Below, one piece after another: positions 29,516 to 33,695 of a stretch of 64,000 nt of DNA. Every line of letters starts with the position of its first letter. The stretch's first letter is position 1. The translations under genes and the position numbers were made by a program. Source of the stretch: an uncultured candidate division Zixibacteria bacterium (GTDB taxonomy: Bacteria > Zixibacteria > MSB-5A5 > UBA10806 > 4484-95); assembly GCA_963668625.2 (NCBI GenBank), contig CAXXKA010000004.1, forward strand, positions 96,001 through 160,000. Direction: 5' to 3'. The notes below the pieces were generated by a model that saw only the letters and a list, made by a program, of their open reading frames with translations, was not told the origin of the DNA and searched no databases.

Positions 29516-30274
29516 TTACGGATTAATAGATACACCAATATTAAGTAAGAAACCTGAAAAATCGAAACACTCGTTTTCTAAATCTCTAATAGTTGTGTTG
29601 CTAAGATAAAGCGAGCTTGTTTTATCTCCAGTGAAACTGAAATCATCACTAACAAGATATCTGTAGCCAAAAAATATTTTTGCCGGCAGAAAACTGAATA
29701 ATTTCCCTCTTGTGCTGAATCCAGCAACAACTCCGAATCCCTGAGCGGTATATGAGATATTATTCGATTGATTGGACAAACTGGCATATTCTTTGGAATC
29801 GAACTTCAATTTACCGAATCCATAACCCGCGCTTAATTCCATAAAGATAGATTTATCCGAGGTCAGGGCATGGCTGCCTTTTACATAAGGAAACCAGAAA
29901 TTATAGGATGTTTTAACTTTAAGATACTTGCTGCTGCTTCCATAATCATCCCAATAATCAGAATAGGTGTGCGATTCCTTGTTATTACCAAAAAGATACG
30001 ATAAACCCAGCCCCAGGAACATACCATTTTTCACTTCATATTCTGATTCAATAAATATAGAGAATCCCCTGGTAATATTAGACGATAAAGGAGAATGATA
30101 TGAAGTATATTCGAATGGATAAATGTTATAAGCGTTTTTGGTATAGTCATAGCTATAGATTGAATAACCCGTACCGACATTGAATATCAGCTTATCGAAT
30201 TCAAATGCGGTTGCAGTATTTGATAAAATCAATGAGTATATTATAACGCTGAGGATAACTATTGCCTTTTTCAT
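29516..30274 (-). CDS. Outer-membrane beta-barrel protein, array paralog 6
   Basis: Signal peptide, alternating aromatic/Gly strands, GYRY, YWDDYG, DFSGFLLNIGVSIN. Confidence 0.7.
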   Translation of the reverse strand: MKKAIVILSVIIYSLILSNTATAFEFDKLIFNVGTGYSIYSYDYTKNAYNIYPFEYTSYHSPLSSNITRGFSIFIESEYEVKNGMFLGLGLSYLFGNNKESHTYSDYWDDYGSSSKYLKVKTSYNFWFPYVKGSHALTSDKSIFMELSAGYGFGKLKFDSKEYASLSNQSNNISYTAQGFGVVAGFSTRGKLFSFLPAKIFFGYRYLVSDDFSFTGDKTSSLYLSNTTIRDLENECFDFSGFLLNIGVSINP

Positions 30275-30311
30275 TATAACTCCTATGATAAAAGTCTACT
30301 CCAAATTTCAG

Positions 30312-31325
30312 TTATCTGTTTGCTAACACAAAGTTAGGGAAATCTTCAAACACCCAATTATTTTTCAAGGTGTCATAGATTATTCCCAGTAATTTTCTGG
30401 CTGTGGCAATGATAGCCTTACCGCTGCCACGACGGTTTTTTATACGATTGTAATATTTACTCAAGTAATGGTTATATCGTATGGCAACAAGCGTACACTG
30501 CACCAGTGTAGTCCGACCAATCTTAGAACCACGCTTGGTAATCCGACCATGATGCTGAATCTCGTTTGAATTGGAAACTCGCGGCACTACGCCAAAATAT
30601 GAGGCCAATTTATCTTTGTCCGAAAAATCAGCAACATCACCAATTACCGAAAGCAACACTGTAGCTGATTTGCTGCCGATTCCTTTGATGCTGGTCAGGT
30701 TCTTATGCCCGTTCAACTTGCGACCCTGATCCTCTATCTGTTTGTCCAGCTTTTTTATCCCCTCATTCAAACTGCGAATCTGATCAACCAATACCTCAAG
30801 CTCAACAGAAACAACCTCATCAAAATTCATCTTTAGAACCCGCTCCAAACTCTTGTTGCTGGAGTAGGCCTCCTTTTTACTCTTGATACCATGATGATTG
30901 AGTATGTTGTGTATTTTATTCTTCAAAGCTGTACGTAACTTGACCAGCTTGTCCCGTGTCCCAACAAGTGAACTGATCTGCGCTTTATCTTTCGTCTTTA
31001 ATCGGGCTTTCGGCAACATGTCTTTGCTCATAAAATAGGCTAAGTTCCTGGCATCGTTTTCATCCGTCTTACTGACTGATGATTTGATTATCTCAAATTT
31101 GTTCGGATCGACGACAACAACTCGCTTGACCAAATGCGATATCTCATCAACGAAATAACGAGTGTTGCCAGTGGCCTCAACCGCTACACAATCCGTCTTT
31201 TTTAATCCTCGTTTAAATTCCTTTAGATCCTTTAGCCGATACTCCTTGATCCTCTCCCGACCACCGGCTGTCAGGTAACACACGGTCAAACTGTTTGTGT
31301 GAAGGTCTACTCCTAAGTACCTCAT
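30312..31325 (-). CDS. IS110-family DEDD recombinase/transposase
   Basis: YLGVDLH, VEATG, KTDENDA, SIKGIG, SYFGVVPRVSNS, GRITKRGS, IATARKL. Confidence 0.95.
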   Translation of the reverse strand: MRYLGVDLHTNSLTVCYLTAGGRERIKEYRLKDLKEFKRGLKKTDCVAVEATGNTRYFVDEISHLVKRVVVVDPNKFEIIKSSVSKTDENDARNLAYFMSKDMLPKARLKTKDKAQISSLVGTRDKLVKLRTALKNKIHNILNHHGIKSKKEAYSSNKSLERVLKMNFDEVVSVELEVLVDQIRSLNEGIKKLDKQIEDQGRKLNGHKNLTSIKGIGSKSATVLLSVIGDVADFSDKDKLASYFGVVPRVSNSNEIQHHGRITKRGSKIGRTTLVQCTLVAIRYNHYLSKYYNRIKNRRGSGKAIIATARKLLGIIYDTLKNNWVFEDFPNFVLANR

Positions 31326-31339
31326 CTTCTTGCTCCATT

Positions 31340-31545
31340 CTATGGTTATCACTGGAGCAGACTCTCTGTCGGCGCCTACCAAACTCCTATTCAAGGTCTT
31401 TGCCTTATGGTGGCAATTCGGTTACAGGTCTGATTAATCTCCTTTACGAGGTCTGGCCTCAAGCATTCAGTTCAGCCTATAACCTATCCGCTCCAGTTAG
31501 AAATTCATTACCGAAGCTCTAACACCAACAGAATAGATTAGCAAG
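31340..31545 (-). ncRNA. Putative IS110 bridge RNA / seekRNA
   Basis: ~240 nt 5' non-coding end; 12 bp closing stem ACUGGAGCGGAU/GUCUGCUCCAGU; guides AAAGGAG (31439-31445, matches target) and AUAGGAG (31384-31390, matches donor), each in a unit starting AGACCU. Boundaries approximate. Confidence 0.7.
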
Positions 31546-31577
31546 ATGCTTTTATCGTACCATCTCCTTTTGATTAT

Positions 31578-32321
31578 TTATAGGCTAAATGATATACTCG
31601 TCCGGGCGTAAATACCGCTGAGATCGACAGTCAAACCGTTAAGATACTGCCAGTAGGCTGAACCATCATGATAATTAATGCTAATCGATTCGGTTTTAAG
31701 ATATCTGTAGCCTATCTCCCCCCCTATAGGTCGATCTTTAAGATTGATAACCGTGCCGCCTAAAGCCAACGTAAAGCTCGCGCCGGTTAATGAGAAGCTT
31801 TTGTCTTCATCATATATAGATGCGTTAAACCTGCACAGACCGATTCCCATGGTAGCCTTGAAATACGGCGAAAGGGATAGAAAAGTGAAATGATTTTTAA
31901 GAATGATATATGGGTTGACGAAAAACGCTTTAGAATTGAAAATCCCGCTTGCGGATCCCCTCGGATCGCCAGTCAGGCTATACCTCTCGGCATCAAAAAC
32001 CGATGAATTATCATCATTACTTCCTGAGCCATAAAGAAATTCCAGTCCGAAACCGATATCATATTTTTCAGTCTCGGCGTATAGTAACTCCGCAGAGAAA
32101 CTAAACCCGTGCTCAACAGCCCATCGTGATGCCACACTACTTATCGAGGGATCCGGAGGCATTTCGTTATAAATAGAAATATTTCCACCGTCATTATTAA
32201 AACCTGTCATCCTAAAATCAGTATAGCCGCCGCTTAAGCTCAGTGTGTATTTATCACCGGCGAAAGCGGTTGTGGCAATTATCACTATTATGAGAAGCGC
32301 TGTTAGTAAAACCTGTTTCAT
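31578..32321 (-). CDS. Outer-membrane beta-barrel protein, array paralog 5
   Basis: Signal peptide, EIGYRY, DLSGIYARTSISFSL. Confidence 0.7.
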   Translation of the reverse strand: MKQVLLTALLIIVIIATTAFAGDKYTLSLSGGYTDFRMTGFNNDGGNISIYNEMPPDPSISSVASRWAVEHGFSFSAELLYAETEKYDIGFGLEFLYGSGSNDDNSSVFDAERYSLTGDPRGSASGIFNSKAFFVNPYIILKNHFTFLSLSPYFKATMGIGLCRFNASIYDEDKSFSLTGASFTLALGGTVINLKDRPIGGEIGYRYLKTESISINYHDGSAYWQYLNGLTVDLSGIYARTSISFSL

Positions 32322-32333
32322 GATACCATCCTT

Positions 32334-32981
32334 TTATAAGCTAAATGATATCCCTGTCTGGAAAAACCATCCGCTTAATCCGTATTGTTTATTATCATAG
32401 TTTATGTATAACCTGTCATCCAATTTTCCTGATTTAACGAACCTGTACCCCCCCTCAACATTAAACCCGTATGTATTACTTTTGATAATTGTTTTTCCCA
32501 GGCTGGGCACCACCCCCACAACATACGTATCGTTAGTAATTGCATACTTATTGTCATTGCAGATAAGCTTCGATACGCCATAGCCGATCCCAATGGACAG
32601 CTTAGAATACATTTTGAATCTCAATACGTCGAAATTATTTCTCATTACAAAGTATGGCAGTACTATATCCACTGACCGACTATAATGATAATAATCAACA
32701 TTCCGCCTTCGATTATCGTAATCATCCTGAAACGTGTGATAGCCATAGCTCAAACGATTTGAACCAGCAAATAAGTATTGTATTCCGCCACCAAGCGATA
32801 AAACATCATTAACTTTGAATATAACTTCACCATATATATTAAAACCTGTATTAGTAGTATGCCCGGATTCATAGTTAAACCCTTCGCCGATAGTAAATGT
32901 CACATTCTCGGATGACAAGACGAACCCCTGGGTTGCTATAATTAGTACAGCAAATGCCGCTATCGTTATTTTACTGTTCAT
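32334..32981 (-). CDS. Outer-membrane beta-barrel protein, array paralog 4
   Basis: Signal peptide, FQDDYDNR, EGGYRF, SGWFFQTGISFSL. Confidence 0.72.
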   Translation of the reverse strand: MNSKITIAAFAVLIIATQGFVLSSENVTFTIGEGFNYESGHTTNTGFNIYGEVIFKVNDVLSLGGGIQYLFAGSNRLSYGYHTFQDDYDNRRRNVDYYHYSRSVDIVLPYFVMRNNFDVLRFKMYSKLSIGIGYGVSKLICNDNKYAITNDTYVVGVVPSLGKTIIKSNTYGFNVEGGYRFVKSGKLDDRLYINYDNKQYGLSGWFFQTGISFSL

Positions 32982-32993
32982 ACCAAACTCCTT

Positions 32994-33695
32994 TTATAAG
33001 CTAAATGATATCCCCGTCTGGAAAAACCATCCGCTGAAATCTATTTCAGTATTATCATCATTTATGAAGAGATTATCATTCATCTCACTGGTCTTAATAA
33101 ACCTGTACCCAGTTTCGATATTTAGACCCCACTTTTTATTACTGATAATTGTCGTCCCGATGCCGGGGATAATACTTGCTACGAATATATCCCTTTCGGT
33201 TATGCTCCCATATCTACTGATATAAAATTTCGATATACCATAACCAAGCCCCACTGATAGCTTCGTATACCAACCGGCTTCGAACAATTTAAACTCGTTT
33301 TTAAAAACCAAATACGGTACTATAAAATCAATATCTCGATAGTATTCCTCGCTAGGCGGTTTACGATTATCGTAGTCATCCTGAAATGTCAAATAGCCAT
33401 CATTGCCTTGAGAGGAAGCAAACATGTACTGTATTCCCGCGCCCAGTGAAACATTGTTATTAATTTCGTATAGCCCCTCGCCATATATATTGTAGCCGTG
33501 ATTAATAGCATGCTCGTTTTCATAAACCCAGTAGTACAAATGGCCATAGTCTAATCTTATATATCTTCCGGTCTCGTTTTGAAAACTATTGAACCCGCCG
33601 CCAAACGTAAATGTTAAATTCTCGGATGATAAGGCGAACGCCTGAGCAGCCATCAATAAGACAACGAAAGCCGCTATCGTGAATTTTCTAGTCAT
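32994..33695 (-). CDS. Outer-membrane beta-barrel protein, array paralog 3
   Basis: Signal peptide, FQDDYDNR, ETGYRF, DFSGWFFQTGISFSL. Confidence 0.72.
   Translation of the reverse strand: MTRKFTIAAFVVLLMAAQAFALSSENLTFTFGGGFNSFQNETGRYIRLDYGHLYYWVYENEHAINHGYNIYGEGLYEINNNVSLGAGIQYMFASSQGNDGYLTFQDDYDNRKPPSEEYYRDIDFIVPYLVFKNEFKLFEAGWYTKLSVGLGYGISKFYISRYGSITERDIFVASIIPGIGTTIISNKKWGLNIETGYRFIKTSEMNDNLFINDDNTEIDFSGWFFQTGISFSL

Follow-up and report, generated by a model that had tools for sequence, protein, structure and literature searches.

A stretch of 64,000 nt from the genome of an uncultured candidate division Zixibacteria bacterium (GenBank assembly GCA_963668625.2, contig CAXXKA010000004.1, positions 96,001 to 160,000; hereafter the window) carries an insertion sequence that lies exactly at the ribosome-binding site of a host gene and leaves that gene with a Shine-Dalgarno motif. 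The locus raises the question of how such a site is chosen. A preliminary description, made from the letters of the window alone, proposed that an IS110-family element is programmed by its own bridge RNA against Shine-Dalgarno sequences. Having analyzed the assembly (4.30 Mb, 10 contigs, 45.2% G+C) together with related elements, we consider it very probable that this is an active IS110-family insertion sequence with an RNA-guided DEDD/Ser recombinase and a bridge RNA at its 5' end, the target guide of which is a Shine-Dalgarno motif. All features of the locus described here are on the minus strand, and coordinates are positions in the window.

Read on that strand, the TAA stop codon of a 247-amino-acid (aa) open reading frame (ORF) is followed by ATAATCAAA and AGGAG (31568-31564), after which the element begins with ATGGTACGAT. 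At the other end, CTTTTATCAT is followed by AGGAG (30284-30280), TTATA, and the ATG (30274) of a 252-aa ORF, which is the order of parts laid out in the preliminary description. The whole element with AGGAG at both ends (30280-31568) measures 1289 bp, that is, 1284 bp plus one shared AGGAG, and the 1279-bp body between the two motifs contains one gene. The left AGGAG (31564-31568), abutting the left end, would be the target's original Shine-Dalgarno motif; the right AGGAG (30280-30284) is now the Shine-Dalgarno motif of the downstream gene, with a spacing of 5 nt to its start codon.

The single gene (30312-31325; 337 aa plus stop codon) encodes a recombinase of the IS110 family DEDD/Ser type. 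The family assignment rests on two Pfam domains, DEDD_Tnp_IS110 (PF01548, E = 5.7e-13) and Transposase_20 (PF02371, E = 5.4e-22), and on a score of 242.7 bits, with a cut-off of 140, against the NCBIfam model "IS110 family RNA-guided transposase" (NF033542). Two hallmarks of the family are present: a single protein of about 330 aa that joins an N-terminal RuvC-like DEDD domain to a C-terminal Transposase_20 domain, and a structured two-loop noncoding RNA that covaries with the target and with the element ends. The protein is distant from those of IS621 and ISCro4 (E about 1e-12, and a good alignment in the C-terminal domain alone) and shares 25-26% identity with IS4321/IS5075 over 93-96% of its length. 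A tblastn search of plasmids returned one relative at 52.7% identity and all others at 33% or less. A protein database holds 4827 recombinase relatives at E <= 0.001, and the recombinases of the related elements considered below align from residue 1-2.

The genome contains 11 copies of the element, 99.92-100% identical over the exact 1289-bp span; eight are identical and three have one base change. Every copy has AGGAG at both ends, and in every copy an ATG follows the right AGGAG by 5-7 nt in the orientation of the recombinase gene, bearing out the suggestion that the downstream gene keeps its AGGAG. The base before the left AGGAG is A in all 11, and the next base out is A in nine and T in two. 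There are 1530 unoccupied AAGGAG sites on the two strands of the genome, and an ATG stands at a spacing of 5-7 nt at 280 of them (18.3%), 233 of which (83%) open an ORF of 80 aa or more. If copies were placed at random among the free AAGGAG sites, the probability that all 11 would have such an ATG is 7.7e-9, and the pattern thus exceeds chance. At nine of the 11 sites the downstream ORF is 116-758 aa long. When eight further downstream ORFs were scanned, seven had Pfam families and one (at L084) had none, as is also true of the window's own gene; the seven comprise M32 and M14 peptidases, a glyoxalase, SnoaL, a cytochrome c domain, and secreted repeat proteins with type IX sorting tails. At three sites a long co-oriented ORF ends 0-45 nt upstream, which places the element at ribosome-binding sites internal to operons.

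One further base is skewed at these sites. The position directly after the right AGGAG (+1) is T at nine of 11 sites, compared with 71 of 396 (18%) comparable free sites (P ~7e-6), which hints at some extra specificity in this genome. Two candidate cues for this T, a U in the donor loop and an AACU at the start of the target loop, do not generalize to relatives; AACU could pair with AG+TT here, but relatives have NAUN in its place.

Because the copies are nearly identical and the recombinase was not found at E <= 1e-40 in 30 relatives of the host (2 from the genus, 7 from the family, 14 from the order, and 7 from the class), the sequences point to recent arrival and spread. In a sequencing run from the same organism (X1), the copies collapse into one 1290-nt unitig (30280-31569) at a depth of 51, compared with 3.6-3.9 in the flanks. 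Fragments of the element that are at least 99% identical, with a few base differences, also occur in three wetland or rhizosphere metagenomes from three studies (X4, X5, and X6), and one X5 contig has a diverged relative of the element.

Related elements were collected in two sets. A scan of one genome per species gave 80 loci with recombinases 52-64% identical to ours, from Acidobacteriota, Omnitrophota, Spirochaetota, Alphaproteobacteria, Planctomycetota, Nitrospira, and other groups; a scan of metagenomes gave 80 further loci at 58-71% identity. One locus of these collections (L011) was dropped, as its left end is not recognizable. In the metagenome set 8/80 left ends and 12/80 right ends were lost to contig ends or to missed end patterns, and the "left ends" of L107, L155, L177, and L178 (CGAG or AGAG), kept in the counts of that set, are probably false pattern matches. 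The ends are conserved as ..(A)A|GGAG|A(T/C)G.. on the left and ..CAT(A/G)|GGAG| on the right.

The preliminary description had named start codons just beyond the flanking motif of homologous elements as the observation to look for, and they are there. Among 83 unique right flanks of the first set (60 nt or more in length, our own 11 sites included), 79 have ATG, GTG, or TTG 3-12 nt downstream, with spacings that peak at 6-7, and 65 have an ORF that is 50 aa or more in length or runs off the contig. In the metagenome set an ATG lies at 3-12 nt in 50 of 58 unique right flanks; by our estimate, chance would put an ATG in a ten-position window in roughly 15% of cases. About 140 insertions of relatives follow the start-codon rule, with the recombinase co-oriented with the target gene. 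The four flanks of the first set that have no start codon belong to one lineage (L058, L064, L066, and L068, from metagenome-assembled genomes of Acidobacteriaceae), in which the target guide reads ACAC-GGAG, the sites lie in CAC-GGAG repeats, and several copies occur near each site. Judged by these sequences, this lineage is a natural case of retargeting away from ribosome-binding sites.

The 243-nt noncoding 5' end of the element folds at -80.5 kcal/mol (z = -4.57, 200 shuffles), and a search of 29800-32000 against all Rfam families at E <= 1 returned no match. A 5' stem-loop (31498-31521, from the minimum-free-energy fold) precedes the predicted bridge RNA core (31352-31496), in which a closing stem, P1 (31496-31486 with 31362-31352), encloses two domains defined by alignment and covariation. 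The target-binding domain (31420-31484) is built of an outer helix, P2 (31484-31473 with 31432-31420), a variable 5' loop strand of 11 nt (31472-31462), a hairpin, P3 (31461-31447), and a 3' loop strand (31446-31433). The donor-binding domain (31374-31414) is smaller, with helix P4 (31414-31409 with 31380-31374), one unpaired base (31408) as its entire 5' loop strand, hairpin P5 (31407-31392), and a 3' loop strand (31391-31381). An alignment of 35 of the 57 unique cores, from which near-duplicates and four cores with long hairpin insertions were left out, supports 39 pairs: 87.6% of cells are paired, compared with 30-46% when the partners are slid, 21 of the 39 pairs show compensatory change, and none of 500 shuffles reaches the observed values. 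Three cores with no anchor in the alignment (L045, L067, and L070) were read by eye. The closing stem proposed in the preliminary description is thereby real.

The long loop strand of each domain is its 3' strand, and it is here that the candidate guides lie. The target loop reads (G)U-AAAGGAG-AUUAAU and the donor loop GA-AUAGGAG-UUU, and AGACCU plus three nt precedes each guide, so that the two parallel units noticed earlier are both present. The target guide AAAGGAG (31445-31439) has the same sense as the left flank plus GGAG and would pair with the bottom strand; the donor guide AUAGGAG (31390-31384) has the same sense as the right end of the element, ..CATAGGAG.

The roles first suggested for these two segments hold up in relatives, where each covaries with its DNA. 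The target guide equals the left flank at -1, -2, and -3 in 71, 69, and 59 of 71 unique pairs; at -4 and -5 it does so in only 16 and 4. These matches at the three proximal positions, 199 of 213 in total, exceed the 160.7 +/- 6.5 obtained when lineages are shuffled, and none of 5000 shuffles is as high. The metagenome set gives the same picture, with 60, 58, 47, 13, and 3 of 64 matching from -1 to -5. In 16 of 20 pairs with guides other than AAA, the left flank is matched at all three positions; these guides read GAA, AGA, TAA, or TTA, or else CAC, which belongs to the lineage of the CAC-GGAG repeats. In two more lineages read by eye, L020 (TGA) and L070 (AAT), guide and flank agree as well. 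The donor guide equals the right end at -3 to -1 in 59/59 elements, with A/A at -1 in 46 and G/G in 13. Lineages with CATGGGAG (CATG-GGAG) on the right and AAA-GGAG on the left have only GGAG common to the two ends, from which it follows that donor and target have no more than GGAG in common.

A second correspondence follows the target guide. The AU at 31437-31438 resembles the handshake guides defined for IS621 by Hiraizumi et al. in 2024 (PMC11208158) and equals the first two bases of the element (AT). In relatives the two bases after the target-loop GGAG match the first two of the element in 59/60 and 60/60 cases (the second as U/T in 53 and C/C in 7), the third matches in 0/60, and in the metagenome set the handshake-like match is seen in 62 of 68.

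The complement of the 3' end of the single 16S ribosomal RNA (rRNA) of this genome (G000 C4:249145) reads GAAAGGAG-G; it matches the target guide perfectly over 7 nt and is unoccupied. In sequence, then, the target guide is in effect a Shine-Dalgarno mimic, with predicted complementarity to the anti-Shine-Dalgarno tail, and it may interact with that tail of 16S rRNA.

Two other segments that the preliminary description had read as guides are better explained as structure. UAAC (31424-31421), thought to be complementary to a GTTA in the target, is part of the 3' strand of P2 and covaries as a helix, and GTTA is present at only 1/11 sites. ACCAU (31411-31407), thought to be complementary to the first bases of the element, consists of three P4 bases, the single unpaired loop base, and the base that opens P5; moreover, CACC(A/G)U is nearly invariant while the first bases of the element vary (ATGGT, ATGGC, ATGAT, ATGAG, ACGAC, and others). 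The same ACCAU also occurs at 31346-31342.

The ends of the element carry a subterminal inverted repeat of 11 nt with one mismatch (31559-31549 with 30294-30284, 91% complementary), its left arm lying 4 nt in from the left AGGAG and its right arm abutting the right GGAG; the right arm (30284-30294) reads CTTTTATCATA. The repeat is retained in 55 unique relatives, with a median exact run of 9 nt and runs of up to 14, and its sequence differs by lineage. The combination of a 5' noncoding RNA with long subterminal repeats, remarked on in the preliminary description, is borne out. Within the left arm, TACGAT (31554-31559) resembles a -10 hexamer, and TAGACT (30293-30298) at the right end resembles a -35 hexamer that would lie 17 nt from it once the ends are joined. 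The predicted circle junction reads ..CTTTTATCAT-AGGAG-ATGGTACG.., and IS110 circles are described as reconstituting a promoter at their joined ends (PMC11208160; also PMC11187229). In 53 of the 57 unique junctions obtained by joining the ends of relatives computationally, a -35/-10 pair spans the joint at the same place; the -35-like hexamer (TTGACA, TTGACT, or TAGACA in relatives) ends 13-14 nt before the right end, and the -10-like hexamer starts 4 nt into the left end. This element has TAGACT-17-TACGAT, and the corresponding pair in a Spirochaetota relative is TTGACA-17-TATGAT. The integrated copy is without the -35 half.

The right end also contains GGAGTAGAC (30294-30302). It repeats the consensus sequence of the closing stem's 5' strand and pairs at 9/9 positions (one of them G-T) with 31362-31354 in the 3' strand of that stem. 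For 33 of 44 unique relatives, at least 8 of the 9 positions of the best right-end 9-mer are paired, and in L072 three positions are changed compensatorily in the 9-mer and in the 3' strand of the closing stem. Here and in L002-L077 this copy lies 9-21 nt from the tip and in most lineages overlaps the -35 hexamer; in Omnitrophota relatives the two are separate. GGAGTAGAC may serve as an additional RNA-DNA or RNA-RNA switch.

On the model of IS621, the element would excise as a circle, and a sigma-70-type promoter that drives the bridge RNA would arise where its ends meet. Each guide would then form pairs with the bottom strand in its target or donor, and strands would be exchanged inside the shared bases. 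The crossover is probably at the final AG of GGAG, because the bases after the guides resemble the handshake guides of IS621 in their behavior and AG is complementary to CT, which is the core in IS621. The element ends in an AGGAG of its own, which leaves the gene with a normally spaced ribosome-binding site. Insertion in sense within a 5' leader would put the promoterless integrated copy, both RNA and recombinase, under host transcription, and read-through would feed the downstream gene; the guide RNA lies upstream of the recombinase gene, and only 27 nt separate the recombinase stop codon from the right AGGAG. On its own, a 7-nt guide would match about 1500 AAGGAG sites, so the restriction to gene starts needs either selection that removes gene-breaking insertions or a further cue. 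Put together, these elements could represent a cross-phylum IS110 lineage that works with a minimal bridge RNA that is one-sided (each loop having a single 7-nt bottom-strand guide and two handshake bases), has its polarity inverted relative to IS621, uses the Shine-Dalgarno motif as both address and payload, and travels as a near-neutral sense passenger in hosts that use AGGAG, borrowing their transcription. We offer this composite picture tentatively and regard it, with all its parts, as rather unlikely.

Does the element sense a signal for translation at all? It may read only the 7-nt (A/T)AAGGAG wherever that occurs, with selection then purging the copies that break reading frames, and we judge the chances that this is so to be evenly balanced. 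Just seven guide positions covary, with -4 and -5 outside the match, and the scan described below gave no right-side guide. Long ORFs follow the occupied sites (9/11) about as often as they follow the free AAGGAG-plus-ATG sites (233/280). The one lineage with a changed guide sits in nongenic CAC-GGAG repeats, and the perfect match at the 16S rRNA 3' end is unoccupied, as expected if lethal hits are lost. On the other hand, selection by itself would have to remove all of the roughly 82% of possible hits that have no well-spaced ATG, and do so in many genomes; the 11 copies here are recent, and none is in an ORF. The T at +1 likewise points to specificity beyond the 7 nt.

A different possibility concerns which strand should be called the top. 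If the antisense strand is so designated, the target becomes CAT-N5-7-CT-CCTTT and the donor ACCAT-CT-CCTAT, and the 3'-side guides would correspond to the RTG and RDG of IS621 (5 nt plus the CT core) followed by a 2-nt handshake, the 5' bottom-strand guides having been lost. The element would then be of IS1111 or IS900 style, with its genes facing the other way from the crossover site. The IS621 core is CT, cut after the T (PMC11208160; PMC11208158), and in our family the bases after the target guide equal the adjacent bases of the donor, while the base after the donor guide (U) agrees with the T found at +1 in nine of 11 sites here. A bottom-strand match that lies 3' of the top-strand complement is described for IS1111 seekRNAs (PMC11187229), and the IS900 motif CATGNNNNNNTCTCCTT, read in the orientation of IS900, takes this form too. 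This argument is one of pure analogy, however, and the handshake it requires in the donor loop has no family-wide signal; in our estimation such an inverted polarity falls just short of an even prospect. That staggered cuts at a favored motif instead duplicated a 5-bp target site, with AGGAG no common core of donor and target and the RNA motifs coincidental, is very improbable: an empty site was seen neither in the 30 relatives nor in the run contigs, which leaves room for such a duplication, but the same GGAG bounds all of the ~150 insertions, including those of lineages with a changed left flank, the RNA of the element has both junction sequences and these covary, lineages with CATGGGAG on the right and AAAGGAG on the left have only GGAG in common, and an IS110-family member has been described as moving without target duplication (PMC11187229).

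We thus favor an RNA-guided element that is directed to Shine-Dalgarno motifs, and several observations weigh against this reading or parts of it. Two of the 11 sites in this genome are followed by short ORFs (34 and 39 aa), and in 13 of the 83 right flanks of relatives a well-spaced start codon opens an ORF of less than 50 aa. When 380 nt of the downstream gene were compared with the 30 relatives of the host, only its own genome matched, so an empty site was not recovered, and contigs of runs X1, X4, X5, and X6 over 30100-31750 contain neither a circle junction nor a joint across the element. Those contigs break at the ends of the repeat, which makes a missing joint or missing cover uninformative in either direction. 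The empty site and the circle junction as reconstructed, and insertion without duplication, are thus what we infer from the integrated copies. The C/T switch in the handshake may rest on only one or two evolutionary events. The donor-loop bases after the guide match the right flank of the target in 32 of 74 cases, compared with 26.2 +/- 4.8 when shuffled, and with our own genome excluded they do so in 23 of 63, compared with 22.2, which is no family-wide signal. Finally, the 5' loop strand was compared with GGAG plus 10 nt of right flank by cell-by-cell complementarity (72 pairs, two anchors, 200 shuffles), and no antiparallel diagonal appeared, only scattered single cells with z of 3-4.6. Given this result and the single-base 5' strand of the donor loop, the IS621-type model with four guides does not describe this RNA. 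One pairing considered for the retargeted lineage, GUGCC with G+GCAC, fits 1/3 site types in a register that is not transferable.

Compared with characterized systems, the element is a mixture. Like the IS621/IS110 group (PMC11208160, PMC11208158), it has a DEDD plus Transposase_20 recombinase and a guide RNA in a long left end upstream of the gene, and it shares with IS621 two internal loops (for the target and for the joined ends), a short sequence common to donor and target, handshake-like bases, and a putative promoter split between the ends. The recombinase itself is only remotely similar to that of IS621 (E about 3e-12, C-terminal domain). IS621 has bottom-strand guides on the 5' side and top-strand guides on the 3' side of its loops (PMC11208160), whereas here the bottom-strand guides are 3' and a top-strand guide was not detected. 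The guides are 7 nt long, compared with 8-9 plus 4-7 in IS621 (PMC11208160), the shared sequence is GGAG rather than CT, and the subterminal repeats are 8-14 bp rather than the 2-3 bp of the IS621 group. In its repeats the element resembles the IS1111 group, which has subterminal inverted repeats of 7-17 bp (usually 11-13; 11 here) with short terminal extensions (PMC11187229, PMC11208160), extensions that sum to 9-10 bp in IS1111 and to about 8 bp here. Siddiquee et al. reported in 2024 that the bottom-strand match is 3' in IS1111 seekRNAs, as it is here, with the reverse order in an IS110-type element, and that the joined ends of IS1111 elements form a promoter (PMC11187229). In IS1111 the noncoding region and guide RNA are normally downstream of the gene, whereas here they are upstream; a few exceptions such as ISMtsp17 combine long subterminal repeats with an upstream noncoding region (PMC11187229).

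The closest parallel in choice of target is found in IS900 and IS901 of Mycobacterium avium. These IS110-family elements target translation-initiation signals (Doran 1997 and Inglis 2003, as cited in PMC2942039) and insert between a Shine-Dalgarno motif and a start codon in one orientation. The IS900 motif CATGNNNNNNTCTCCTT given in a genome study of 2021 is the complement of AAGGAGA-N6-CATG, and IS900 is said there to rarely interrupt genes (PMC8141618). The target class is therefore one already described for the IS110 family, and of the proposal that this element homes to ribosome-binding sites, the sense Shine-Dalgarno motif at 11/11 copies and in relatives stands, whereas its novelty for the family does not. 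In the orientation in which the IS900 motif is written, the transposase runs opposite to the target gene, and host signals are said to serve an antisense ORF (hed). The recombinase studied here points the same way as the target gene in all 11 copies and in relatives, and the element gives an AGGAG back to that gene. The hosts considered here span many phyla, and the likeness to IS900 is one of target motif, not of sequence comparison.

A literature search found no explanation of the IS900-type target by a bridge-RNA guide, nor a co-oriented, motif-restoring element or the breadth of this family, although supplementary target tables from 2024 and the 86 covariance models of a 2026 preprint may include it. 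"IS110 family," "Shine-Dalgarno," and "insertion site" occur together in no paper found, and in the accessible parts of PMC11208160 and PMC11187229 "ribosome," "Shine," and "RBS" are not used to describe targets. One preprint that names both IS110 and Shine-Dalgarno was set aside as a precedent, since Shine-Dalgarno there concerns a riboswitch.

If our reading is correct, it supplies a sequence-level explanation for a habit of IS900 and IS901 that was described before guide RNAs were: the guide spells the Shine-Dalgarno motif, and the end of the element repairs the site. Homing to ribosome-binding sites would be widespread, to judge from thousands of metagenomic recombinase relatives and ~140 insertions in many groups. 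For work on bridge recombinases, the family provides a natural example that combines the guide order of IS1111 with the gene order of IS110, and its very short guides, with no visible top-strand guide, bear on the minimal pairing that such an enzyme needs. In annotation, gene inactivation should not be assumed for copies within operons or 5' leaders, as they leave an intact ribosome-binding site.

At the locus itself, the upstream host gene (31578-32321) is co-oriented with the element, and its stop codon lies 9 nt before the left AGGAG. The downstream gene, hit at its ribosome-binding site (29516-30274; 252 aa), has a signal-peptide-like N terminus and no Pfam family. Both lie in a tandem array of four co-oriented paralogous ORFs on the minus strand (29516-33695; 215-252 aa), with signal-peptide-like starts and similar C termini that end in ..GISFSL in three; the two that were scanned have no Pfam family. 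The element lies between the first two ORFs of the array.

Two observations on the insertion sites of relatives concern neighboring copies. In L014 (2552-2583) and in the right flank of L168, two tandem copies of the final 16 nt of the right end (ACAAACATCATAGGAG) precede the host start codon, which may be the footprint of insertion beside, or excision from, an earlier copy. The left flank of L041 ends in ..CTCTCATA before GGAG, which is like the right end of a related element and not like an A-rich ribosome-binding site, and L041 may be an insertion next to the remnant of another copy.

The left end of the element (31554-31563), like the left ends of relatives, opens with a short frame that has an A(T/C)G start and an in-frame TGA or TAA within 3-4 codons. 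Here the frame is ATG GTA CGA TAA, directly after the left AGGAG with no spacer, and it is probably conserved because of the overlapping -10 hexamer.

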